Below are positions 3 to 32,000 of a DNA stretch of 32,000 nt, one piece after another (position 1 is the stretch's first letter; every line of letters starts with the position of its first letter). The stretch is from NCBI RefSeq assembly GCF_900130005.1, contig NZ_FQXP01000005.1, positions 313,746 through 345,745 of the forward strand. Reading direction: 5' to 3'. Below the pieces are notes generated by a model, which saw nothing but the letters and a program-made list of their open reading frames with translations, made no database searches and was not told where the DNA came from. The position numbers and the translations under genes were made by a program. Source of the stretch: Clostridium collagenovorans DSM 3089 (lineage in GTDB: Bacteria > Bacillota > Clostridia > Clostridiales > Clostridiaceae).

Positions 3-818
3 AAAAAATATGCTTTATATGTAGTAGAGTGCTTAAATTCATTGTGCAAGATAGTTCTTATAAATAATAATAGTGAAAAAGCAACTAAATATTTAATATT
101 AGCTAAAAACTATATATATAAGTATAATTTAATTAATACTAGATCAAGTGCTATTATACACTGTAACCTTGGTTCCATATATTATAGAAACTTGAAATAC
201 ACAGAAACTATAAACTTACTTGAGAGTTTTTTAGATACTCCTAGAGACACTATTTATGTAGATGTATTTGCTACGCTTAATTTTAATTTATCTATCTCAT
301 ATTATAATTTAAATGATTATGATAAGGCTATAGTATATTTAAAACGTTGCTTAAATCTGTCTCAATATCATGGTAATTTATACAAAGATTATGTTTTATA
401 TTGTACACACTCTACATTTTTGATACATTCGAAAAAATTCGATGAATCTATTAATATGTTAACTTATTTAAAGTATCAATTTAAACATGATCCAATTGCA
501 TACAATAATTTACTTGCTCAAGAAATATTAACCTACTTCATTAGCGAAGATTATACAAAATGTCTTAAGGTATGTAATGAAATTAATCTTAACAAACTTA
601 CTAAAGCAGGTAAAATAGATTATTACTTTATTAAAGGATGGATTACTGATGATTTAGATTTATTAAAGCGATGCGAAAATTATTTTATAAATAAATCTTA
701 TTACAAAGATTTAATCGCTCTGTACGATAAATTATACAAAATAACTAAAAATCCAATTTACAAAGATCATATACATTCATATAAGGATAAATCCTTTAGC
801 AAAAATATATTTGCATAA
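3..818 (+). CDS. TPR-repeat protein, 5'-truncated by the window edge; probably the C-terminal sensor domain of an RNPP/XRE-TPR type regulator
   Basis: The frame is open from nt 3, with no stop upstream of the TTG at 42, so the gene starts outside the window. It has TPR-like helical repeats, e.g. LGSIYYRNLKYTETINLLESFL and SISYYNLNDYDKAIVYLKRCLNL. Stop TAA at 816-818. No DNA-binding domain is visible in the window. Confidence 0.55.
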   Translation, partial: KKYALYVVECLNSLCKIVLINNNSEKATKYLILAKNYIYKYNLINTRSSAIIHCNLGSIYYRNLKYTETINLLESFLDTPRDTIYVDVFATLNFNLSISYYNLNDYDKAIVYLKRCLNLSQYHGNLYKDYVLYCTHSTFLIHSKKFDESINMLTYLKYQFKHDPIAYNNLLAQEILTYFISEDYTKCLKVCNEINLNKLTKAGKIDYYFIKGWITDDLDLLKRCENYFINKSYYKDLIALYDKLYKITKNPIYKDHIHSYKDKSFSKNIFA

Positions 819-860
819 AAATAACAACTTTAGCTATGTCTAAAGTTGTTATTTTAGTTT
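817..860. terminator. Bidirectional intrinsic terminator between convergent genes
   Basis: Perfect 15-bp stem (817-832 aaaataacaacttta / 841-855 taaagttgttatttt) with an 8-nt loop. An A-run lies before it and a T-run after it. Confidence 0.8.
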
Positions 861-942
861 ATGCTTACTGAAAATAAAATTTTTCATTTTACATCTTAAT
901 TCTCATTCTTTAAAATTATTCTATTTATTATGATCAAATAAT

Positions 943-1566
943 TTAATGAAAGATTGATTCTCCTATTTGTCCTGCTACTTCTTTGTCTGCATCTAAGAAG
1001 TCTACATTACCTTGTGCTCCTCTCATTACATGAAAGATTGACTCTCCTATTTGTCCTGCTACTTCTTTATCTGTACCTAAAAAGTCTACATTGCCTTGTG
1101 CTCCTCTCATTACATGAAAGATTGACTCTCCTATTTGTCCTGCTATTTCTTTATCTGCACCTAAGAAGTCCACATTGCCTTGTGCTCCTCTCATTACATG
1201 AAAAATTGACTCTCCTATTTGTCCTGCTACTTCTTTATCTGCACTTAAGAAATCAACATTACCTTGTGCTCCTCTCATTACATGAAAGATTGATTCTCCT
1301 ATTTGTCCTGCTACTTCCTTACTTGCATCCAAGAAGTCTACATTACCTTGTACTCCTCTCATTACATGAAAGATTGATTCTCCTATTTGTCCTGCTACTT
1401 CTTTATTTTCATTTAAGGAATCTACTGTTCCTGGTGTGCCTCTCATCACATGAAAGATTGACTCCCCTATTTGTCCTGCTACTTCTTTATTTATGTCGAC
1501 TTTTACAACTGCTAATCCCATTAATGCTACTGCTACAGTTAAACAAGCTAAACTTTTCTTTTTCAT
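943..1566 (-). CDS. Secreted tandem-repeat protein: signal/anchor peptide plus 6 full and 1 truncated 28-aa repeats (core KE[VI]AGQIGESIFHVMRG)
   Basis: ATG at 1566 is preceded by GAGGTG (plus 1575-1580) with an 8-nt spacer. The N-terminus MKKKSLACLTVAVALMGLAVV is a positively charged n-region followed by a hydrophobic h-region. The repeats are visible directly in the translation. The protein ends exactly after the core ...GESIFH. Confidence 0.85.
   Translation of the reverse strand: MKKKSLACLTVAVALMGLAVVKVDINKEVAGQIGESIFHVMRGTPGTVDSLNENKEVAGQIGESIFHVMRGVQGNVDFLDASKEVAGQIGESIFHVMRGAQGNVDFLSADKEVAGQIGESIFHVMRGAQGNVDFLGADKEIAGQIGESIFHVMRGAQGNVDFLGTDKEVAGQIGESIFHVMRGAQGNVDFLDADKEVAGQIGESIFH
946..1500 (-). 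repeat. 84-bp tandem DNA repeat, about 6.6 copies, in-frame (28 aa)
   Basis: The motif atgaaagattga(c/t)tc recurs at 946, 1030, 1114, 1198, 1282, 1366 and 1450, an exact 84-nt period. Confidence 0.95.
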
Positions 1567-1608
1567 AATTTTAACACCTCAACCTTATATTTTATAGCTT
1601 AATTCTAA

Positions 1609-1617
1609 TTTATACCA
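1609..1617 (-). promoter_or_regulatory. Candidate extended -10 promoter (TGgTATAAA) for the repeat-protein gene
   Basis: The minus strand reads aTGgTATAAAtt about 40 nt upstream of the ATG. No good -35 is present. Confidence 0.35.
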
Positions 1618-2045
1618 TATTTTTTTTCAAACCTCTCTATTGTTTTTTAGGTACCATTAAAAATTACATTCACTTTAACATATTTATTTACTTCGTTTTT
1701 CTATAGGATTTATTTATTTTTTATTCAAATGTTACTCTCAACAACATTTCTACGTTTTATTTAATTATCATGGGTTTTTATGTAGATTTTTTTACATTTT
1801 ATGCTTGCAACGTCGATTTCTTTACAACGAATCTGTTTTTTATATCACTATACTTTATTGAATTGCCTATGAAATTGATCATTTTTTATTTTTTTATATT
1901 ATAATATATGTAATTTCCTCTATAATTTTATAGTGATTAGGTAGATTTAATTTAGCTTAGTTTGTATAATACTATAATATTAGTAAAACCTATTGTAAAT
2001 AGGTTTTAAAAGATATATGTAAAATTTATTATTGGGGGTATATAA

Positions 2046-2684: not shown

Positions 2685-2837
2685 TAACATGTTAATTTAT
2701 TGTATTTCTTGTGAATATATAATAGAATAATATATCTAAAACAGTATAAAAAAGTGTATAATGAAATATATAAAGTCTTATTGTCTTATTTTGACATTTT
2801 ACTTTATTTACATTTTGTTATAGGAAAGGAGATTATT

Positions 2838-3569
2838 ATGAGTAACACTACAAAGACAAATCCAGAAGTAAAACCTACAAGTAAAAACGTACCTGTTATA
2901 AAAGGAACTCTTAGAAATCATATGCTTGAAGTTCCTAACTCAATTAGAGATGCTAGTGGTATTGTGATTTTTGGTAAAAGACTTAAGTCTCTTGTGTTTA
3001 CAACTGATGTTGCTATTATAAAAAATACAAATGCTGATGCTGTAATCGCAGTTTATCCTTTTACTCCACAACCAATAATAACTGAAGCTTTAATTTTAGC
3101 TGCTGATGTTCCATTATTCTGCGGAGTTGGTGGAGGTATAACAACTGGTAAAAGAGTTGTAAACCTTGCTCTTGATGCTGAATTCAAAGGTGCAATGGGA
3201 GTTGTTGTTAATAACCCAACACCAAATGAGGTTATAAAGCAAATGAGAGATACAATTGATATTCCAATTATCGTTACTGTTGTATCTGAATTTGAGGATA
3301 TTCAAGGTAGAATAGATGCAGGTGCTACTATACTAAATGTATCAGGAGCTAAAAGAACTGCTCATATTGTTAGAGAAATAAGAAAAGAATTCCCTAATTT
3401 CCCTATCATAGCTACTGGTGGTCCTAATGATGAATCAATAAGAGAAACTATAGCCGCTGGTGCTAATGCTATTACTTATACACCACCTATAGCTTCTGAT
3501 ATATTGAATACTATAATGGAAAAATACAGAAAAGAATATAAGGAAGCTGACGAGCATAACCATGAATAA
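2838..3569 (+). CDS. Conserved TIM-barrel-like protein (phosphate-binding barrel, NanE/ThiE-like features), function unknown
   Basis: I moved the start to ATG 2838, behind AGGAAAGGAG. Gly-rich CGVGGGITTG and ATGGPNDESIRETIAAGANAI motifs resemble phosphate-binding barrels. No specific family was recognised. Confidence 0.6.
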   Translation: MSNTTKTNPEVKPTSKNVPVIKGTLRNHMLEVPNSIRDASGIVIFGKRLKSLVFTTDVAIIKNTNADAVIAVYPFTPQPIITEALILAADVPLFCGVGGGITTGKRVVNLALDAEFKGAMGVVVNNPTPNEVIKQMRDTIDIPIIVTVVSEFEDIQGRIDAGATILNVSGAKRTAHIVREIRKEFPNFPIIATGGPNDESIRETIAAGANAITYTPPIASDILNTIMEKYRKEYKEADEHNHE

Positions 3570-3639: not shown

Positions 3640-3837
3640 AATTAATATTGCTAATCTTAAATTAACATAATCATTATCTAAGAATCAATAATTATCTAAT
3701 CTAATAATTCTCCAACAATTAATTATTATCTATATATAATAACTTAATTTACTCATTTATCGTACTTTATTGTATATTAAATTTTGCATTTTAATTGTAT
3801 AATATTGTTTGTATGCATAATTATTACTAGCTAGGGG

Positions 3838-5223
3838 GTGGCTTTTATATCAGAGAACAATATTACAAATGTAATTGACAAGGATTTAAAACATGACTTA
3901 CTTGCCATGTCAGTTCCAACTATAATGGGATTTTTACTTCAGTCGGTTTATGACTTAGTAGATATGATGTGGGTAGGTCGTCTTAATTCATCAGCACTGG
4001 CTGGTGTTACTATTTTTTCAACAATATTTTGGCTTGTTGGAATATTAAATGAAATAATCGGCACAAGTTCTGTATCTCTTATTGCTCAATGTTATGGCTC
4101 AGGAGATATGAGAAAAACTAGGGTTGCTATAGAGCAAACCTTTACATTCAAGGCTTTAGTTGCTGTTTTAGCAGGATTTATTATGGCTGCCATACTTAAT
4201 CCTTTGCTTAAGTTTTTTACCACTGATTCCTCTGTATTAACTGCAGCATTAGATTATGGGTATATAAGATTATTTTTCTTACCAATAATGTTCTCTTCAT
4301 TTACGGTTAATACAGCTTTTAGATGTTTAGGTGATGCAAAAACTCCAATGAAAATTATGGTGGTAGCTTCTATAGTTAATTTAGTTCTTGATCCTATATT
4401 GATATTCGAAACTATTCCCGGGACAAGTATTCCTGGTTTTAACCTTGGAGTTTTTGGCGCTGGGTTAGCTACCGTAATATCAACTGTAGTTGCCTTTGGA
4501 ATAGGATTTTGGATTTTTTTAAGTGGAAGAACAAAGATTAAAATAATCTTTAGAGACCTATTTAAGCTTGATTGGGAAATTGATAAGAAACTATTAACTA
4601 TAGGCCTTCCTAATGGTTTTGAAGCTCTTATGAGACAACTTGCAAGTATCATAACTTTAAAGCTTGTAACCAGCTATGGAACCTCAGCCGTTGCTGCTAT
4701 GGGAATTGTTAATAGACTTCTAGATTTTTCATATGTGCCACTTAATTCACTTTCTATAGGAAGTAGTTCTATAGTTGGCCAATGTTTAGGAGCAAATAAT
4801 GTACCAAGAGCTAAGGCAACAACTAAATTAGCAACTAAGATAAATTTGGGAGCAATGATTATAATATCTTTAATTGCTATTATATTCCCTGAATTCTTAA
4901 TGAAAATATTCACTGATGATAGAGAGGTAATCGCAGCAGGTATACCTGCTATTAGGTTACTTATATCCTCATTAATATTTGCAGCTGTATCCTCTGGATT
5001 GGGCTCTGTATTTTCTGGTTCAGGATATAACCTTCCATTCTTAATTGCTAGTATAATTTCAAGATGGATTGTACAAATACCATGTATGTTATTAGTGGTT
5101 ATTGTGCTTAAGTTATCTAGTACTTATCTATGGGGCTGCTTCTTCTTAGCTAACTTCACTTCTATGATAGTGATGTATTATTACTATAAAAAAGGTACTT
5201 GGGAAAGTAAAAGAGTTGGCTAA
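3838..5223 (+). CDS. MATE family efflux transporter
   Basis: About 12 predicted TM helices. The N-terminus has the MATE-typical AMSVPTIMGFLLQSVYDLVDMMWVGRL. The exact start is uncertain: GTG 3838 abuts the AGGGGG RBS, and ATG 3907 is an alternative. Confidence 0.85.
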   Translation: MAFISENNITNVIDKDLKHDLLAMSVPTIMGFLLQSVYDLVDMMWVGRLNSSALAGVTIFSTIFWLVGILNEIIGTSSVSLIAQCYGSGDMRKTRVAIEQTFTFKALVAVLAGFIMAAILNPLLKFFTTDSSVLTAALDYGYIRLFFLPIMFSSFTVNTAFRCLGDAKTPMKIMVVASIVNLVLDPILIFETIPGTSIPGFNLGVFGAGLATVISTVVAFGIGFWIFLSGRTKIKIIFRDLFKLDWEIDKKLLTIGLPNGFEALMRQLASIITLKLVTSYGTSAVAAMGIVNRLLDFSYVPLNSLSIGSSSIVGQCLGANNVPRAKATTKLATKINLGAMIIISLIAIIFPEFLMKIFTDDREVIAAGIPAIRLLISSLIFAAVSSGLGSVFSGSGYNLPFLIASIISRWIVQIPCMLLVVIVLKLSSTYLWGCFFLANFTSMIVMYYYYKKGTWESKRVG

Positions 5224-5333: not shown

Positions 5334-5843
5334 TTAAAACTTTAAAGTTATAACTCTTCCCTTTTTTAAGGTTTCTTTTATATCTATTATTCTTTGATTT
5401 GCTGATCCTTTAAATTTTAAGCCCTCAACCTTATGCTCTTCTTCGAATCTTCCATCAACTAATACATCTATATTATTTATTAACTCTTTCCAGCCTCTTC
5501 TCTCATTAAAATGCTCCATAATGTATTCCATTGTATATCCTGTGTAACACCATATTGATAAATCCTTCTTTTTAATTTCCTTTGCAAAGGCTGCAAAAGC
5601 TTCCCCTTGCTCTAAAGGATCTCCACCTGAAAATGTAACTCCAGTCAAAAGTGGATTTTCATCCATATCTTTAATAAGCTCCGATATAGGCATTAACTTT
5701 CCACCAGTTAAGTCATGGGTTTCTTTATTAAAACAACTTTTACAATTATGTTTGCATCCTTGAGCAAAAAATACTCTTCTTATTCCTGGCCCATTTACCA
5801 AACTTTCATATGCTATACCTGCTAATCTTAACTTCGTATCCAT
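5334..5843 (-). CDS. nrdG: Anaerobic ribonucleoside-triphosphate reductase activating protein (radical SAM)
   Basis: ESLVNGPGIRRVFFAQGCKHNCKSCFN contains the CxxxCxxC motif. Size and position next to nrdD fit. Confidence 0.92.
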   Translation of the reverse strand: MDTKLRLAGIAYESLVNGPGIRRVFFAQGCKHNCKSCFNKETHDLTGGKLMPISELIKDMDENPLLTGVTFSGGDPLEQGEAFAAFAKEIKKKDLSIWCYTGYTMEYIMEHFNERRGWKELINNIDVLVDGRFEEEHKVEGLKFKGSANQRIIDIKETLKKGRVITLKF

Positions 5844-24289: not shown

Positions 24290-24590
24290 GTTGAAAAAAA
24301 ATGCCTCTAAGCTTATCTATAAGCTTAGAGGCATATTATTTACGCGTTACCACTCTAATTCATCCTTATTTCTCAATAAGGATCTCAATAGGTATATATT
24401 TCTATCGTACCCTTCAATATAACGGTTGAAACCGAAACATCTTAAATATATCACTTTCAATATAAATTCAGATGTTTTGCTCAGAGTCCATGTTCATAAG
24501 ATCTTTTATCACCAGCTTTCACCTACCCTGGCTCTCTTTAGATAATCTCCCTTATTACTCTTCTCTTCATAGCTTTTTATGATTTATAAT
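24290..24590 (-). promoter_or_regulatory. T-box leader (Met-specific) controlling metG
   Basis: The minus-strand leader has stem-I elements AGAGAG and GGTGAAAG. The T-box sequence AGAGTGGTAACGCG is at plus 24343-24356. AUG triplets occur in the specifier region at plus 24489-24491 and 24495-24497. A terminator follows. Confidence 0.85.
24293..24334 (-). terminator. T-box terminator hairpin
   Basis: Perfect 15-bp stem (24301-24315 / 24320-24334), 4-nt loop, then a run of 7-8 U. Confidence 0.9.
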
Positions 24591-25525: not shown

Positions 25526-26446
25526 TTATGCAACATCCTCTAAGTCTTTTTTCTTATTTCCCCTTAAGAAGTTCAACTTAGTTTCAGCTGTGATTAGTCC
25601 AACTAAAATAAATGCACATCCAATAACCATCTTAACAGTAAATAATTCTCCTAGAATTATAACTGATGCTAAAGCACCAAATACACTCTCTAAAGATAAA
25701 ATTATAGCTGCATGAGTTGATGTCGTATATTTTTGTGCTGAGTTTTGAATAATATATGCAACCATAGTGCTTACTGCACCTAAGTAAAATACCGCTGCCC
25801 ATCCTACTGTTGGTACATTAGTAGGCATTCCTTCCCCTGATATAAGGACCGCGATTACTGAAAGTATCATAGCCGTTGCCATTTGTAATACTGTTATTAT
25901 AATTGGGTCTGACTTTTGTGTAAAATGCTCCACAACTATAATATACATTGCAAAGAATACCGCACAAACAACTGTTAAGCCGTCCCCTAAAAGCTGAGTA
26001 CTCTCGAAAGAAGCCTCACCATTTAAACTTAACAATCCCATACCTAATAAGCATATAAAAGTCGCTGCAAAAGTATAGTTATCAGGTTTCTTTTTCTTTA
26101 CAAACCAATAAAAAAATGGAACCATAACTACGTTTAATCCAGTTAAAAAAGACTGTTTTCCTGGAGTGGTATAATTAAGTCCTACTGTTTGAGTAGTAAA
26201 TGCTAAAAATAATACAATACCTACTATAACCCCAGCTTTTACGTCTTGTTTATTGATTTTTTTAAGCTTTTTAAAGAATATTATTGCCATTAATACAAAG
26301 GCTACTCCGAATCTTATGGCCATTGTATAATATGTACCTATCCCATTACTTAAAGATAAATCAGTAGCAACAAATCCTAAGCCCCATATTAAAGCACATA
26401 GCAATAAGGCTAAATCTGCCATTACAGTTTTCTTCTTTTCGTTCAT
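25526..26446 (-). CDS. EamA/DMT superfamily transporter
   Basis: Ten TM helices in two EamA-like halves. I moved the start to ATG 26446, after AGAGGGGGA. Confidence 0.85.
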   Translation of the reverse strand: MNEKKKTVMADLALLLCALIWGLGFVATDLSLSNGIGTYYTMAIRFGVAFVLMAIIFFKKLKKINKQDVKAGVIVGIVLFLAFTTQTVGLNYTTPGKQSFLTGLNVVMVPFFYWFVKKKKPDNYTFAATFICLLGMGLLSLNGEASFESTQLLGDGLTVVCAVFFAMYIIVVEHFTQKSDPIIITVLQMATAMILSVIAVLISGEGMPTNVPTVGWAAVFYLGAVSTMVAYIIQNSAQKYTTSTHAAIILSLESVFGALASVIILGELFTVKMVIGCAFILVGLITAETKLNFLRGNKKKDLEDVA

Positions 26447-26575
26447 TATAATTAAATCCCCCTCTTTTGAAATCAATCGTCTCATGCCTTAAAACGATTT
26501 TTTTCTTAAATTATCTTAATAATCATACATCATTATAAAGATAAGTTCCAGTAAAAGGTTTTCTATTCTTTTACT

Positions 26576-26604
26576 AATTAAGACTCTATAATAGAGTCTT
26601 AATT
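26576..26604. repeat. Perfect 29-bp palindrome (14-1-14)
   Basis: aattaagactctat-a-atagagtcttaatt. It lies 82 nt after the peptidase stop and 130 nt before the EamA start. There is no U-tract on the transcribed (minus) strand. Confidence 0.9.
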
Positions 26605-26685
26605 ATATTTTATCCCCACTTTTAGCTCAACTTTATCCCCAAAGAGCCAAGTAACCACTTACTAAACCGTTATAGGCTTATATTT

Positions 26686-27756
26686 TTACTTTATACAAAT
26701 TAATTCTTTAGAAGTTTTTGTTAGAATTTCTACTCCATCATTTTTAACAACAACAGTATCTTCTATTCTAACTCCACCCCAATCAGGAATATAAAGACCT
26801 GGTTCTACAGTTACAACACAGTTTTCTTCGAAAACTCTGTTCCCCGCGTAACTTATAAATGGCTGTTCATGTAATTCTAAGCCCACACCATGACCTATAC
26901 CTGAATAATAGTATTCTATATACTTTTCTGAAGCTGCTCTTGCTAAATCATCTGGAGTCTTTGTTGAAACACCAGTTTTAATAGAGTTTTGAGCATCCTC
27001 TTGAGCCTTTTTCACCATATTATATATTTCTAGTTGCTTTTCATCAGGTGTGCCCATAACTATTGTTCTTGTCATATCAGAACGATATCCATTATACATA
27101 GCGCCATAATCAAATAATAAAAAATCCCCATCTTCTATTACTTTATCCCCTGGCTGCCCATGTAGAAGAGATGTTTTAGCACCTGAAATTAGAATAGTAT
27201 CAAAAGCAAGTCCATCTGCACCTTCTTTTTTCATATAATATTCTAATTCTAAAGATACTTCTTTTTCAGTCATTCCAACTTTAACGAAGTCTAATATTTT
27301 AGAAAAGGCTTTATCAGCAATAATTGCTGCTTTTCTTGTACATTCTATTTCTTCTTCATCTTTAACATATCTTAAATCTTCAATAATTCCATCAGTTGGA
27401 ACTAATTGAGCTGTAGTTAAACAATTCTTTAATTTTTCATATAAAGAAAAACTAACCACTTCTTGCTCAAAAGCAATTTTAGAAATATTATTCTCTTTAG
27501 CAATAGCTTCAACTGATTGTCCTAAAGTATTTCCTGGTCTTGCCCATTTTTCAACTATGAATCCTGGACATTGCTTTTCAGCCTGCTCCGTATATCTTCC
27601 ATCAGTAATTACATACTGTTTCTCAGGTGTTATAAATAAATACGCACCTGAATCAGTAAACCCACTAATGTATCTAACATTAGGAACCTTACTTATAAAG
27701 AATCCGTCAATCCCCTGACTTCTCATAACTTCTTTTAATCTACTTAATCTTTTCAT
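26686..27756 (-). CDS. M24 family Xaa-Pro aminopeptidase/dipeptidase
   Basis: Creatinase-like N-domain followed by a pita-bread domain, with FDYGAMYNGYRSDMTRT, HGVGLELHE and VEPGLY...GGVRIEDT metal-ligand motifs. I moved the start to ATG 27756. Confidence 0.88.
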   Translation of the reverse strand: MKRLSRLKEVMRSQGIDGFFISKVPNVRYISGFTDSGAYLFITPEKQYVITDGRYTEQAEKQCPGFIVEKWARPGNTLGQSVEAIAKENNISKIAFEQEVVSFSLYEKLKNCLTTAQLVPTDGIIEDLRYVKDEEEIECTRKAAIIADKAFSKILDFVKVGMTEKEVSLELEYYMKKEGADGLAFDTILISGAKTSLLHGQPGDKVIEDGDFLLFDYGAMYNGYRSDMTRTIVMGTPDEKQLEIYNMVKKAQEDAQNSIKTGVSTKTPDDLARAASEKYIEYYYSGIGHGVGLELHEQPFISYAGNRVFEENCVVTVEPGLYIPDWGGVRIEDTVVVKNDGVEILTKTSKELICIK

Positions 27757-27790
27757 ACAACTCACCTACTGTGTTTTAAAGTAAAGTATC

Positions 27791-28615
27791 CTATTTTCTT
27801 TTTGAATCATAAGAAGACATTTCTTTAGATTTCTCAGCACAAGCCATCATACCTTCAATAACAGCATTTCTCATGCCATATTTTTCCATAGCTATAACAG
27901 CATCTATAGTTGTTCCTGCTGGAGAACAAACCATGTCTTTTATTTCTCCTGGATGCTTTCCTGTTTCAAGAATCATTTTAGCTGTACCTAATACTGCTTG
28001 TGAAGCCATCTTGTATGCACTTGGACGTGTTAATCCTAATGCAACACCTGCATCAGCCATAGCTTCTACAAATAAGCATACATAAGCTGGAGATGATCCA
28101 CTAATTGCTATAAATGCATCTATGAAACTTTCTTTAAGTATTTCTACTTTTCCAAAACTTTGATATATTTCTTTAACTAAATCTAGTTCTTCATCACTAA
28201 TGTTTCTATTAGGACATAGAGCTGACATAGCTTCTGAAACTAAAGCTGGTGTATTAGGCATAGTTCTAACTAACTTTATACCTCTTTCAAAAGAATGTTC
28301 TATTTCAGCAATAGTTACTCCTGCCATTATACTTACTATAATACAATCCTTTTTAACCTTTGACTTTATTTCATCCGCAACTATTGGAAATATATTAGGT
28401 TTAACAGATAATATCAATACATCAGCTTCAGCTACAACTTCTAAGTTAGATTTAGTAGTCCTAACCCCTAACTCCTTCTCTGCTATATCTAAAGATGGTT
28501 GATATAAATCTGAAACTATGATATTTGTACTTGGTACAAGGTTAGATTTAATTATCCCCCCCATCATAGCTCTTCCCATATTTCCACAGCCTATAAAACC
28601 TATAATTTTATCCAT
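27791..28615 (-). CDS. proC: Pyrroline-5-carboxylate reductase
   Basis: IGFIGCGNMGRAM Rossmann motif, plus RTMPNTPALV and SPAGTT motifs. I moved the start to ATG 28615, after GAGGGGGA. Confidence 0.92.
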   Translation of the reverse strand: MDKIIGFIGCGNMGRAMMGGIIKSNLVPSTNIIVSDLYQPSLDIAEKELGVRTTKSNLEVVAEADVLILSVKPNIFPIVADEIKSKVKKDCIIVSIMAGVTIAEIEHSFERGIKLVRTMPNTPALVSEAMSALCPNRNISDEELDLVKEIYQSFGKVEILKESFIDAFIAISGSSPAYVCLFVEAMADAGVALGLTRPSAYKMASQAVLGTAKMILETGKHPGEIKDMVCSPAGTTIDAVIAMEKYGMRNAVIEGMMACAEKSKEMSSYDSKRK

Positions 28616-28646
28616 AACTAAATAAGTCCCCCTCAAGTATTTATAA

Positions 28647-28680
28647 GGAACCAAGGATACTCTCCTATATCCTTGGTACC
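28647..28680 (-). terminator. Strong hairpin between the glycyl radical enzyme gene and proC (terminator or processing site)
   Basis: 13-bp stem ggaaccaaggata / tatccttggtacc matching at 12 of 13 positions, 8-nt loop, weak U-tract (uuauaaau). Confidence 0.45.
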
Positions 28681-28764
28681 CATATTCCACACATTATATT
28701 GCTATACAATTCTTGCAATATACCCTCAAACATTATTAAGGGATCTTCTTAGTAAAGTTTATAA

Positions 28765-31146
28765 TTAGCAGCAGCTTGCTACTCCTTCTATCTCTTGTTC
28801 TGTTCTGTTTATGATTTCATCTTGTAATACTTTATTTAAATTACAGAAGTAATCACTGTATCCAGCAACACGAACTATTAAGTCCTTGTATTCATCTGGA
28901 TTTTCTTGAGCTCTCATTAAAGTAGCTCTGTCAACAACGTTAAATTGGATATGGTGTCCACCCATCTTGAAGTAAGATCTTACTAATTTAACGATATTAT
29001 TTAATCCATCATCACCAGCAACAACCCCTGGAGTGAATTTTTGATTTAATAGTGTACCACCAGTTTTTACGTGGTCCATTTTAGAAGCTGATTTAATAAC
29101 TGCTGTTGGGCCGTTTCTATCAGCGTTCTTTGATGGAGATATACCTTCTGAAGTTGGTAATGCAGATTTTCTTCCATCAGCACTTGCGCCCATTACTTTA
29201 CCAAAGTAAACGTGACAAGTTGTTGGAAGCATATCAATTCTGTAAGTACCACCATTTACAGTTGGTCTTCCATCTATAGATTTTTGGTACATATTAAATA
29301 CTTCTTTCATAATGTCATCAGCATAGTCATCATCGTTACCATACTTAGGAGTATTGTTACATACTAAGCTGTATACATCATTATGACCTTCGAAGTTATC
29401 TTCTAAAGCTTTCATTAATTCAGCCATTGAGAAGTTTTTATTATCGAATACATTGTATTTAATTGAAGATAAAGCATCTGTAATTGTTCCAATACCAACA
29501 CCTTGAACATATTTTACATTGTATCTAGCTCCACCAGCATTGTAGTCTTTTGCATTAGTGATACAGTCATCAATAACAACAGACATAAATGGTGAAGGCA
29601 TCATTGTAGCGTATATTCTTTCGATGATTTGGTTACCTTCAAGTTTAATTTCAACAAAGTGATGAACTTGTTTTGTATAAGCTTCGAATAATTCTTCGTA
29701 GCTCTTGAAGTCTTCAGCCTTACCAGTTTGTAAACCTATTTGTTTCTTAGTTCTTGGGTCGTAACCATTATTTAATGTAATTTCAAGAATCTTAGGTAAG
29801 TTAAAGTATCCTGTTAAAGCATAACACTCCTTACCAAAAGCACCAGTTTCAACACATCCACTAGTTCCACCACATCTAGCATCTTCGATAGATTTTCCAA
29901 CTCTTAACATTTCTTCAATAACTGTCTCTACGTTGAACATTGATGGCTGTCCAAATCCAGTTCTAACAATCTTAGCAGCTCTCTTAATAAAGCTATCTGG
30001 ATTTAGTCTACTTACTTGGATATTTGAACTTGGTTGTAATAATCTCATTTCTTCAATTACATCTAAAATCATAAATGTTACTTCATTAACAGCGTCCTTA
30101 CCTTCTTTAGTAACACCACCTAAGTTAATGTTACAGAAATCTGTGTAAGTTCCACTTTCCTCTAAAGTTATACCAACTTTTGGAGGAGCTGGTTGGTTGT
30201 TAAATTTAACCCAGAAACACTCTAATAATTCTGTAGCTTGCTCTTCAGTTAAAGTTCCAGCTTCATTTTCTTTTTTGTAGAATGGATATAAGTGACTATC
30301 TAATCTTCCTGGGCTGAATGAATCCCAAGTATTTAACTCGATAGTTACTCCTAAGTGTACAAACCAGTACATTTGTAATGCTTCACGGAATGTTCTTGGA
30401 GCATGTTCTGGTACCCATCTACAAGTTTCAGCTATTTCTAATAATTCAGATTTTCTTTGTGGACATTCTTCTTTAGCAGCTAATTCTTCTGCTAAATCTG
30501 CATGTCTGTGTGCAAATATAATTAATCCATCACAAACGATATCCATAGCTTTTAATTCAGCTTCTTTATCGTATGCTTGTACGTCATTTACGAAGTCTAA
30601 CTTAGCTATTTCTTCAGCTATTTGAGCTTTGAAATCTAAGAATCCTTTATGATAAATCTTGTCTCCACAAACTGCATGTCCTGGTGATCTTTGCTCCATG
30701 AATTCAGTAATAATACCTGCTTCATATAAGTCATGCCATTCTGGAGTCATTCTATCAAGTATAATTTTTCTTAAAGCTCTATTTTCCCAGTAAGGAATTA
30801 TTTCTTCCTTTTGGAATTGTTTTTTCTCTTCATTTACTCTAAAAGATATCTTTTCACGTCTGTCCATGATATCGAAATCTTCTAAAGTGTGACAACATAA
30901 TTCTGGATAGTTTGGTGTAGCAGCTGGTGCTGAACCTTTTTCCCCTACTATTAACTCTCCATCATTGATACAAACAGTTTTATTAGCCATAACATGTTTG
31001 AATGCTAATGCTCTTAAAACCGGTGTTGGTACTGTACCTTGATACATTTTGTAAGCTTCTGTTATATATTTTGCTCTTTCTAAGCAAATATATGGGTCAG
31101 CGCTAACACTTTGAGCTCTTAATTTTTTAACTCTTTCTGTCATCAT
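28765..31146 (-). CDS. hypD: Glycyl radical enzyme of the dehydratase (1,2-eliminase) class; by context trans-4-hydroxy-L-proline dehydratase
   Basis: C-terminal glycyl radical motif VRVAGYSDYF. Cys-loop GGTSGCVETG (Cys-x-Glu, dehydratase type, not the PFL Cys-Cys). Flanked by an activase and proC. Confidence 0.75.
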   Translation of the reverse strand: MMTERVKKLRAQSVSADPYICLERAKYITEAYKMYQGTVPTPVLRALAFKHVMANKTVCINDGELIVGEKGSAPAATPNYPELCCHTLEDFDIMDRREKISFRVNEEKKQFQKEEIIPYWENRALRKIILDRMTPEWHDLYEAGIITEFMEQRSPGHAVCGDKIYHKGFLDFKAQIAEEIAKLDFVNDVQAYDKEAELKAMDIVCDGLIIFAHRHADLAEELAAKEECPQRKSELLEIAETCRWVPEHAPRTFREALQMYWFVHLGVTIELNTWDSFSPGRLDSHLYPFYKKENEAGTLTEEQATELLECFWVKFNNQPAPPKVGITLEESGTYTDFCNINLGGVTKEGKDAVNEVTFMILDVIEEMRLLQPSSNIQVSRLNPDSFIKRAAKIVRTGFGQPSMFNVETVIEEMLRVGKSIEDARCGGTSGCVETGAFGKECYALTGYFNLPKILEITLNNGYDPRTKKQIGLQTGKAEDFKSYEELFEAYTKQVHHFVEIKLEGNQIIERIYATMMPSPFMSVVIDDCITNAKDYNAGGARYNVKYVQGVGIGTITDALSSIKYNVFDNKNFSMAELMKALEDNFEGHNDVYSLVCNNTPKYGNDDDYADDIMKEVFNMYQKSIDGRPTVNGGTYRIDMLPTTCHVYFGKVMGASADGRKSALPTSEGISPSKNADRNGPTAVIKSASKMDHVKTGGTLLNQKFTPGVVAGDDGLNNIVKLVRSYFKMGGHHIQFNVVDRATLMRAQENPDEYKDLIVRVAGYSDYFCNLNKVLQDEIINRTEQEIEGVASCC

Positions 31147-31152
31147 AATAGA

Positions 31153-32000
31153 TTACCCCCCAATCTTTACTTTTAAACCTACATTTTTGAAAATTTCTGA
31201 CAATTCATTCATTTTCGCATGTGATGGTTCTTGAATTTCTTGTAATTTAAGATCCATATTTAATCTTTTATATTTATCCATACCCATTTTGTGATATGGT
31301 AAAAGATTCACTTGAATAATGTTTAGGTTCTTTAATAATTCAGCAGCCTTTTTTAAATCTTCTATATCATCATTAACACCTGGTATTATAGGCATTCTGA
31401 TGTAAATATTTTTCCCCAAGTCCGATAACTTCTTCAAGTTATCCAAAATCAATTCATTTGGTACTGAGGTATAAATTTTGTGTTTATCACTATTCATATG
31501 CTTCAAATCATATAAGAATAAGTCTGTATAATCTACTATCTTTTCAAACTTATCCCATGATACATACCCACAAGTATCTATTGTAGTGTGTATGTCCATT
31601 CTCTTGCACTTCTTCATTACTTCTCTTAAAAAATCAGCTTGGATAAGTGGCTCTCCCCCTGAGAAAGTTACTCCCCCATTTGATTCATCATAGAATACCT
31701 GATCTTTCATAATTTCTTTAAATAACTCATCTACAGAAATATACTTTCCTTTAATAACCCTTGCTTCATTAATGCAATATTTCGAACATTCAGAGCAAAG
31801 TTCACAACTCTCAGAATTATATTTAAGTTTGCCATCAACAATTGATAAGGCGCCCTTTGGACAATGTTTTATACAATTTCCACAAGCCGTACACTTTTCT
31901 TCCCAGTACATTACTTCTGGTTCTAGATGCTGACTTTCTGGATTGTGACACCACCAACAATTAAGTGGACAACCCTTGAAAAATACTGTTGTACGTATGC
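31153..32000 (-). CDS. Glycyl-radical-enzyme activating protein (radical SAM with ferredoxin-like insert), 5' end outside the window
   Basis: The frame stays open above the ATG at 31911. The upstream in-frame translation reads ...FFKGCPLNCWWCHNPES, which is the CxxxCxxC motif. Two CxxCxxCxxxC clusters follow. The stop lies 6 nt before hypD. Confidence 0.9.
   Translation of the reverse strand, partial: IRTTVFFKGCPLNCWWCHNPESQHLEPEVMYWEEKCTACGNCIKHCPKGALSIVDGKLKYNSESCELCSECSKYCINEARVIKGKYISVDELFKEIMKDQVFYDESNGGVTFSGGEPLIQADFLREVMKKCKRMDIHTTIDTCGYVSWDKFEKIVDYTDLFLYDLKHMNSDKHKIYTSVPNELILDNLKKLSDLGKNIYIRMPIIPGVNDDIEDLKKAAELLKNLNIIQVNLLPYHKMGMDKYKRLNMDLKLQEIQEPSHAKMNELSEIFKNVGLKVKIGG

Follow-up and report, generated by a model that had tools for sequence, protein, structure and literature searches.

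A PlcR-like (RRNPP-type) peptide quorum-sensing cassette, in which the pro-peptide gene has been internally amplified to seven copies of the signal, probably occupies the left end of a 32,000-nt stretch of DNA from Clostridium collagenovorans DSM 3089 (contig NZ_FQXP01000005.1, positions 313,746 to 345,745). This entire stretch is referred to here as the window, and coordinates are those of the window unless a locus is named. The presumptive cassette consists of a regulator gene (3-818, plus strand) and of a gene for a secreted repeat protein, the precursor (943-1566, minus strand). The two genes are convergent (tail-to-tail) and 124 bp apart. The strongest evidence for the proposal is that the tetratricopeptide repeat (TPR) domain of the regulator and the repeat core of the precursor appear to diverge together among related lineages, as expected of a receptor and its ligand. 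An earlier note, made from the letters of the window alone, had described the same pair as the TPR-rich C-terminal part of an RNPP-type regulator lying tail-to-tail with a seven-copy secreted precursor. The analysis presented below bears out this description.

Organization of the repeat precursor

The precursor gene, read here as a secreted multi-copy pro-peptide gene on the basis of its open reading frame (ORF), its tandem repeat, the analysis of its units and the presence of homologues beside every related regulator, encodes 207 aa. The ORF begins with an ATG, 8 nt downstream from a ribosome-binding site read from the sequence (GAGGTG; 1575-1580, minus strand), and ends with a stop codon at 943-945. 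The N-terminus of the protein, MKKKSLACLTVAVALMGLAVV, contains three lysines followed by approximately 17 hydrophobic residues, with Kyte-Doolittle means between 2.1 and 2.9 over 11 residues. Residues 1 to 26, MKKKSLACLTVAVALMGLAVVKVDIN (1489-1566, minus strand), are predicted from hydropathy to constitute a Sec-type signal peptide and a short linker; they are identical in the allele of a related locus, L008 (see below). Tandem Repeats Finder identified an 84-nt period at 946-1490 (6.5 copies, 90% matches, score 845). At the protein level this corresponds to six complete 28-aa units of the type KEVAGQIGESIFHVMRGxQGNVDFLxxx (985-1488, minus strand; individual units at 1405-1488, 1321-1404, 1237-1320, 1153-1236, 1069-1152 and 985-1068) and to a seventh, truncated unit, KEVAGQIGESIFH (946-984, minus strand), with which the protein ends at the histidine of the core. 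The last residues are GQIGESIFH, and this core is present in seven identical copies. The protein thus combines more than the two conserved mature copies that define a multi-copy pro-peptide with spacers that vary.

The differences among units are unevenly distributed. Nearly all of those in codons 1 to 17 are synonymous, with a single V/I change, and many of those in codons 18 to 28 are replacements. In the core itself the seven units vary only synonymously. This pattern identifies the minus-strand frame as the coding frame and shows that the core is under purifying selection. By the same criterion, a leucine-rich ORF of 204 aa on the opposite strand (954-1568) was dismissed as a shadow of the precursor gene.

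The precursor belongs to no Pfam or NCBIfam family and has no cell-wall anchor, lipobox or known repeat family. A role as a lipoprotein acylated at Cys8 was considered and discarded, since the lipobox context is missing and the cysteine is absent from the allele of locus L004. A direct search of a word-indexed set of 5.8 billion sequences returned nothing at E ≤ 1e-3. An exhaustive search of 1.84 billion representatives yielded, as homologues of the window precursor, only the syntenic precursors P0011 and P0015, both already known from their gene context; the other matches were collagen-like and other repeat proteins, set aside on reading their sequences as compositional likeness. Scanning metagenomes with the precursor N-terminus found nothing. 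The exact 207-aa sequence is absent from a 15-billion-protein collection in which neighbours from the same genome are present (NrdD, SHH82843.1; the MBL-fold hydrolase, SHH82777.1; MetG, SHH83146.1), and the deposited genome may carry no annotation for the gene, or a different one. A 225-aa protein of the representative library (P0024) contains five units, SEVAGIPSYIHDARRIRGFTQFLQAG, which resemble the unit KEVAGQIGESIFHVMRGAQGNVDFLGAD (40% identity, E 6e-7). P0024 lacks a signal peptide and its N-terminus is unusual; distant kinship, a wrongly called frame and coincidence are all conceivable.

The regulator and its relatives

The stop-free translation of positions 3-818 (271 aa, TAA at 816-818) matches the Pfam models TPR_1, TPR_2, TPR_8 and TPR_12. 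It is interpreted, from these matches and from full-length homologues, as the C-terminal TPR domain of a 421-aa regulator of which approximately 150 N-terminal residues, including the helix-turn-helix (HTH), fall outside the window on its left side. The nearest match in the databases, P0001, has 99% identity across the 271 aa, and the metagenomic contig that encodes it is 97% identical at the DNA level. P0001 is 421 aa long. Its residues 5 to 64 match HTH_3/HTH_19, which provides the N-terminal XRE-type domain whose presence the earlier note had proposed to check, and are followed by TPRs (TPR_1, TPR_2, TPR_12). Both the length and the repeats are within what is specified for RRNPP receptors (250-500 aa, TPR-type repeats; PMC10075063), and the N-terminal HTH is found in P0001 and in all its relatives, the window's copy being cut at the window edge. 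Four other close homologues, P0002 to P0005, are 67-78% identical to the regulator over the 271-aa fragment and 73-83% identical at full length. P0001 to P0005, the only close lineages, are 419-421 aa long, and all have the HTH at residues 5 to 64 followed by TPRs. A profile search added four distant lineages, P0007 to P0010 (27-35% identity), with the same HTH plus TPR architecture. Scanning metagenomes with the regulator profile contributed only the P0007 lineage and matches confined to the HTH.

Beyond the generic HTH and TPR domains the regulator has no Pfam or NCBIfam family. When a profile built from nine sequences was compared with the PDB, the best natural relative of solved structure was PlcR (2qfc; E 6.4e-12). 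The alignment joins profile positions 7-144 to PlcR residues 5-143 and so reaches past the HTH; ComR and Rgg also match the profile, on the HTH only. As judged from these alignments, homology to validated RRNPP members is clear for the N-terminal third of the protein and unspecific for the rest. The AlphaFold2 (AF2) model of the regulator is an all-alpha array of TPR helix pairs (pLDDT 82), and Rap proteins are among its Foldseek matches (E 4e-5 to 1e-4, TM 0.33-0.50). The predicted fold is compatible with the RRNPP type without being specific for it.

The sequence cluster of P0001 contains no NCBI member that represents the regulator of C. collagenovorans DSM 3089. A scan of genome contigs with patterns from the N-terminal part of the regulator did not find the DSM 3089 protein either and recovered only the metagenome-assembled genome (MAG) already known. 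In the DSM 3089 assembly the regulator gene is possibly interrupted or situated at the end of a contig.

A precursor gene follows the regulator in every close lineage

The earlier note had also suggested examining whether the two genes occur together. In all five lineages a convergent precursor homologue is found directly after the stop codon of the regulator gene, within the same wider gene order: ileS, regulator, precursor and a metallo-β-lactamase (MBL)-fold hydrolase. Because the five lineages represent two species, closely related and alike in this wider gene order, conserved adjacency is by itself weak evidence. Most short-read contigs break inside the precursor gene. The allele shared by the window and P0001 has seven copies of GQIGESIFH, with a spacer after each full unit. 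That of L008 (regulator P0002) reads MKKKSLACLTVAVALMGLAVVKVDINKEVAGQIGEPIIHSTRGARGIVDILGADREVAGQIGEPIIHSTRGASGIVDFL and has two copies in two 28-aa units as assembled. The allele of L004 (P0003), from a Clostridium sp. MAG, has the structure KEVA[GQIGESIMH]x3, linker, [GQIGESIMH]x2, GQIGIGQELI. L011 (P0004) carries GQIGDTIIHNTRGAKGIVDFL and L013 (P0005) HVMRGAQGNIEFL; in the latter, the contig stops before the core and only the spacer can be read. The core GQIG[ED]xI[FIM]H is repeated in each allele whose sequence reaches it. The layout of the units is not constant, going from seven or, as assembled, two units of 28 aa to five back-to-back-type units of 9 aa in L004, where the 19-aa spacer is absent. 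Since L004 retains the core without the spacer, the functional element is likely to be a short released core rather than a 28-aa fold. The earlier note had stressed that the precursor ends at the core. This is true of the window and is not a conserved feature: in other alleles the last residues are VDFL or the last unit is degenerate.

The precursor is 207 aa long in the window, 109 aa in L004 and 79 aa in L008; only the last is within the 10-100 aa that RRNPP_detector considers for pro-peptides (PMC10075063). The excess length is fully explained by the internal repeats.

Two other candidates for the signal were examined. A 54-aa ORF upstream of the regulator gene (L001 5465-5629) has no signal peptide. 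Its identity between strains is explained by the identical flank, and L004 has an unrelated 41-aa ORF at that place. Within the precursor, the spacer sequence H-x-x-RGA resembles the xxxRGA form of the arbitrium AimP peptides. It is missing from the L004 allele and was ruled out as the conserved signal.

The TPR domain and the repeat region diverge together

When the window and L001 are compared with L008, the ileS leader, the regulator promoter and HTH, the precursor promoter and signal peptide, and the MBL gene are 97-100% identical. In the interval from the HTH/TPR junction to the residue following GQIGE of the first repeat, identity is 58-85%. The allele breakpoints thus coincide with the boundaries of functional modules and domains. 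Among P0001, P0002, P0004 and P0005, the HTH is 100% identical and the TPR segments are 52-98% identical. The rate of synonymous substitution (dS) in the HTH is 0-0.11. In the rest of the regulator codons dS is 0.8-2.4, exceeding 1.3 in five of the six pairs (the exception being P0004/P0005), and the rate of replacement (dN) is 0.08-0.19, for a dN/dS of about 0.05-0.14. Synonymous divergence outside the HTH is thus at saturation. These values suggest that the regulator alleles are old and functional, each of them under purifying selection within one species background.

Joint divergence of receptor and ligand is the pattern of pherotype loci such as PlcR-PapR, ComQXP and agr. Of all the data, the co-divergence described here is the strongest evidence that the TPR domain and the repeat core act as receptor and ligand. 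We consider it likely that specificity resides in the TPR domain and in the residues that follow GQIGE, and that at least four alleles (pherotypes) exist in one species and a fifth in a related species.

Distant regulators adjoin single-copy pro-peptide genes

Regulators that are 33-35% identical to the one studied here adjoin small secreted ORFs with a single copy of a comparable sequence. The encoded proteins end with DEKEPIFIMNGGTARS and DELRPVILSSRVSKC, and their cores resemble the pattern E[SP]I[FI]H..RG. In the P0007 lineage (35% identity) the small ORF, MRKKLFVLALLTLLLISSFSITPKTNRLYADEKEPIFIMNGGTARS, lies upstream of the regulator gene; for P0009 (33% identity) it is directly divergent, MKKILAFMLVLSIFCCVIPYNVAQANDELRPVILSSRVSKC. 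The cores EPIFIMNGG and RPVILSSR are reminiscent of ESIFHVMRG and EPIIHSTRG in the alleles described above. By their sequences, the small ORFs of P0007 and P0009 are putative classical single-copy pro-peptides of the RRNPP type. Because the relatives are such ordinary single-copy peptide-receptor pairs, the multi-copy form looks like the product of internal amplification. At locus L015, in the 35%-identical lineage, a gene for a secreted PG_binding_1 protein (1390-1752, minus strand) is situated between the regulator gene and the small pro-peptide-like ORF (920-1060, minus strand). It may be a target gene of that lineage's system.

Candidate cis-acting elements

A perfect 16-bp hairpin, flanked on its two sides by an A-run and a T-run, is found at 818-855, between the two convergent genes. 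Its folding energy is -20.3 kcal/mol (z -5.5) for one strand and -16.6 kcal/mol (z -5.6) for the other, and it is a plausible candidate for the shared bidirectional intrinsic terminator that the earlier note had postulated. Upstream of the precursor, the sequence TTGAAA-17-TAGAAT (1602-1630, minus strand) is a candidate sigma-70-like promoter by its match to the consensus; both hexamers are kept in the related species, where the second reads TACAAT.

The candidate operator is a palindrome at 1727-1749, AAATGTTAC-TCTCA-ACAACATTT, which contains the strict motif TGTTRY-N5-RYAACA at 1730-1746. This box is conserved in L008. In L004 the precursor-side box has changed flanks, GAATGTTAC-TATAG-ATAACATTC, and lies within an intergenic region that has otherwise diverged. 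The centre of the box is 172 bp from the ATG of the peptide gene in the window, 169 bp in L004 and 168 bp in L016, a 33%-identical relative in which the box is found in the divergent intergenic region. On the regulator side, L001 has a box identical at 19 of 21 positions, approximately 135 bp upstream of the regulator ATG; of all 21-mers compared between the two intergenic regions, this pair matches best. In L004, the aligned position ahead of the regulator gene reads TGTTGC-CTACA-GCAACA. The 32-kb window, L001 and L016 each have a single occurrence of the strict motif and L004 has two, as against approximately 0.07 expected per 32 kb, and every one of these sites lies in a regulator or precursor promoter region. 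From this distribution we infer an autoregulatory loop through the box. The search for a -10 element shared by the promoters at a fixed spacing from the box was given up, the placement being inconsistent in L016 and L004.

The operator favoured in the earlier note, ATGTA-N8-TACAT at 1780-1797, did not withstand comparison. The site exists, but its arms are short (5 bp) and lie in AT-rich DNA, L004 does not conserve it, and shuffling the window produced a site of this kind in 15 of 100 trials. The palindrome at 1727-1749 takes its place. A separate, perfect 11-bp inverted repeat, TAAAACCTATT-N3-AATAGGTTTTA, is present at 1984-2008, just before the start of the MBL hydrolase gene (2046). L008 has the identical repeat and L004 lacks it; it may form a small hairpin or serve as a binding site.

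A model for the cassette

The data can be accommodated in the following scheme. The 207-aa precursor would be exported through the Sec pathway by virtue of its N-terminal signal peptide. The exported part consists of the seven identical cores, (KEVA)GQIGESIFH, with the less constrained spacer VMRGxQGNVDFLxxx between them. Extracellular proteases would then release short peptides containing GESIFH. The C-terminus of the released peptide is probably the histidine, because the last unit ends there and L004 repeats GQIGESIMH back-to-back. With seven cores in each precursor, up to seven signal molecules could arise per translated chain. The peptides would be re-imported, presumably by an oligopeptide permease (Opp) encoded elsewhere, and bind to the concave face of the TPR domain. 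The conserved HTH would recognize TGTTRY-N5-RYAACA upstream of both the regulator and precursor genes, closing an autoregulatory loop, and further targets of the regulator might lie outside the window. The signal yield, the re-import and binding of the peptides and the outside targets are proposed by analogy with PlcR-PapR, NprR-NprX and Rap-Phr. The semi-conserved spacer peptide, (H)VMRGAQGNVDFL, might constitute a second released product. More tentatively, and with a little less than even confidence, the genes may represent an unrecognized PlcR-like RRNPP subfamily in Clostridium with a "poly-pheromone" precursor, whose alleles differ in peptide code (ESIFH, EPIIH and DTIIH within one species, ESIMH in the sister species), in architecture and in copy number. 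In that case both the identity of the signal and its dose per transcript would be evolvable parts of a pherotype.

A number of observations weigh against the cassette as proposed. The HTH of DSM 3089's own regulator is deduced from a metagenomic orthologue (99% identical in protein, 97% in DNA). In the fold search of the regulator, generic TPR proteins (LGN, OGT) outrank Rap, and neither PlcR nor NprR is among the top 50 Foldseek matches. No Opp genes are found within the 32-kb window. The five regulator lineages amount to two species, and three of the precursor genes are cut by contig ends, which makes copy numbers outside the window uncertain. The 19/21 match between the two boxes is of modest significance, since a match as good or better appeared in 8 of 300 first-order Markov resamples, and the box is situated approximately 100 bp upstream of the best sigma-70-like promoter. 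Finally, the best AF2 model of the precursor has a weak periodic helix-strand-strand pattern.

This last observation also speaks for an alternative in which the precursor is a structural or adhesive repeat protein, secreted or on the surface, and at most a regulated target rather than the source of a ligand; the regulator would then respond to a different cue or be an orphan. The upstream candidate operator fits a mere target gene equally well, and RG.QGNVDFL, the motif of the spacer, shows fair conservation both within the window protein and in three alleles. The best AF2 model reaches a pTM of 0.56, and with its 207 aa the protein greatly exceeds the 21-50 aa of validated pro-peptides (PMC10075063). 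The same best model has a pLDDT of only 57, however, the other four of the five models score 38-43, and no PDB fold match has an E below 0.1. The reduction of the unit to a back-to-back 9-aa core in L004 is incompatible with a conserved 28-aa structural repeat, and the protein carries none of the anchors, lipoboxes or known repeat families looked for. Furthermore, the variable block comprises exactly the TPR domain and the mature region, and the distant relatives pair with classical small pro-peptides of similar core. We therefore regard a structural role as unlikely.

The remaining alternatives are more improbable still. The genes could be neighbours for historical reasons only, with no functional link, their shared variability reflecting a local hot spot of recombination. 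This reading is retained because physical linkage alone could produce a joint variable block: the genes being adjacent and convergent, a single old recombination event could span both. The origin of all five lineages in two closely related species that share their wider gene order also favours it. Against it, the edges of the block are the HTH/TPR junction and the residue after GQIGE, the same rare palindrome is found upstream of both genes in both species, and distant regulators in unrelated contexts also adjoin small secreted peptides; we give it very little credit. Slightly less credit again is due to the suggestion that the precursor belongs to the multi-core class of ribosomally synthesized and post-translationally modified peptides (RiPPs) or bacteriocins, in which the repeats would be released as modified antimicrobial peptides and the regulator would control production only. 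Multi-core precursors are known in several RiPP classes, and the window has a radical-SAM gene (5334-5843) at a distance of 3.8 kb. The product of this gene is, however, the activase of the anaerobic ribonucleotide reductase (NrdG), encoded beside NrdD, and the only other radical-SAM protein nearby is the HypD activase (see below). The 32 kb contain no modification enzyme or maturase, no dedicated ABC exporter/peptidase and no immunity gene. In place of a RiPP leader the precursor has a predicted Sec signal peptide, and the core lacks Cys, Ser/Thr-Cys or other typical modification motifs.

Comparison with known systems

The cassette most closely recalls PlcR-PapR, whose box and pherotypes are established knowledge. 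Both systems have a receptor with an XRE-type HTH and TPRs, related here by a profile match that runs through the HTH, the linker and the first TPR, and an adjacent gene for a pro-peptide exported by Sec, as predicted for the present one. In both, polymorphism is concentrated in the TPR domain and the peptide and spares the HTH, and a palindromic box upstream of both genes suggests auto-regulation. The differences are nonetheless substantial. The present receptor is 421 aa long, with more TPRs, as compared with approximately 285 aa for PlcR, and no sequence similarity is detectable beyond residues 1-144 or so. The peptide gene is convergent instead of co-directional and downstream, and the precursor has 207 aa and seven copies in place of 48 aa and one C-terminal heptapeptide. 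The sequence of the box differs, and the host belongs to the class Clostridia.

A more distant parallel, by analogy only, exists with the yeast MFalpha1 and other eukaryotic poly-pheromone and neuropeptide precursors, secreted proteins in which tandem identical peptides separated by spacers are released by endoproteolysis. MFalpha1 differs in being eukaryotic, in its processing by Kex2 and Ste13 in the secretory pathway, and in the sensing of its product by a surface G protein-coupled receptor.

Multi-copy pro-peptides are not without precedent in bacteria. The earlier note had mentioned repeated units in Phr precursors; these are documented (Even-Tov et al. 2016, PMC5199041), and they are not restricted to Phr, since up to six identical copies are described in pro-peptides of the AimR, NprR, PlcR and Rap subfamilies, and none in those of Rgg/ComR (Felipe-Ruiz et al. 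2022, section 7, PMC9765709). Duplicated Phr pro-peptides were found experimentally to yield multiple pheromones, and up to eight copies are cited (Felipe-Ruiz et al. 2024, PMC11343458). To free an internal copy, cleavage is required at each of its ends, and Phr105 gives pheromone from both of its copies (PMC9765709, PMC11343458, PMC5199041). The Phr, NprX, PapR and AimP pro-peptides of Bacillales thus share with the present one the presence of several identical or nearly identical mature copies. They differ in having cores of 5-7 aa, short spacers and mostly fewer than 100 aa, as compared with a 28-aa period, a semi-conserved spacer of 15-19 aa and a total of 207 aa here. In addition, the alleles of the present precursor vary in unit architecture (28 aa versus 9 aa), and there is no sequence relationship to the Bacillales peptides.

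Among clostridia, the Qsr/Qsp systems of C. acetobutylicum (PMC7376267) and QssR of C. saccharoperbutylacetonicum (PMC7206700) likewise associate HTH-TPR regulators of the RRNPP type with small Sec-type pro-peptides. The latter are single-copy and co-directional; Qsp genes lie downstream of their regulators and encode a conserved L/P/W motif (Qsr proteins were compared by description only). The active QspB heptapeptide, AEPTWGW, is internal and not C-terminal (PMC7376267), indicating that clostridia can process internal signals. As the earlier note had supposed, a poly-pheromone precursor appears to be undescribed for Clostridia, none being reported in PMC9765709, PMC11343458, PMC5199041, PMC7376267 or PMC7206700, and a literature search did not find the core sequences of the precursor. 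The cassette is therefore not categorically new, given the multi-copy RRNPP pro-peptides already known in Bacillales. What distinguishes it is its occurrence in Clostridia, the PlcR-like receptor without characterized relatives, the convergent layout, the long seven-copy precursor with its 28-aa period, the dependence of architecture on the allele and the pherotype structure within a species.

Implications

If the proposal is correct, multi-copy pheromone precursors extend from Bacillales to Clostridia and to a PlcR-like lineage with no characterized member. The lineages compared here would constitute a natural allelic series, constant in DNA-binding domain, promoter and signal peptide and variable in TPR pocket, peptide code and copy number. 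Such a series could be used for testing the evolution of receptor-peptide specificity and of signal dosage. The case also points to a blind spot in genome mining: a 207-aa gene would escape RRNPP_detector because of the range of pro-peptide lengths applied there (PMC10075063), and the exact precursor sequence is missing from the 15-billion-protein collection. As pure speculation, the regulon of a collagen-degrading host, perhaps including secreted proteases, could be of applied interest.

Other features of the window

The window is AT-rich (30% G+C). Beside the MBL hydrolase gene, a 271-aa ORF (2754-3569, plus strand) is conserved also in L004; its only matches, all below cut-off, are weak ones to TIM-barrel, aldolase or PEP-mutase-like proteins. 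An AT-rich degenerate tandem repeat (periods of 18 and 34 nt) occupies intergenic positions 3663-3742, upstream of a MatE efflux gene (3838-5223). Two T-box leaders score above the Rfam gathering threshold, one upstream of metG in the window (24324-24579, minus strand) and one upstream of ileS in L001 (5003-5240, minus strand), just left of the regulator gene. Toward the right end of the window, a cluster for hydroxyproline utilization (25526-31911, minus strand) fits a collagen-degrading clostridium. It includes genes for an EamA transporter (25526-26485), an M24 Xaa-Pro dipeptidase (26686-27765), a pyrroline-5-carboxylate reductase (27791-28690) and the trans-4-hydroxy-L-proline dehydratase HypD (28765-31146; NF043068, 1446 bits against a cut-off of 1100), all on the minus strand. 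The HypD radical-SAM activase (31153-31911, minus strand) lacks, as listed, approximately 46 N-terminal residues of the model, and its true start is probably upstream.

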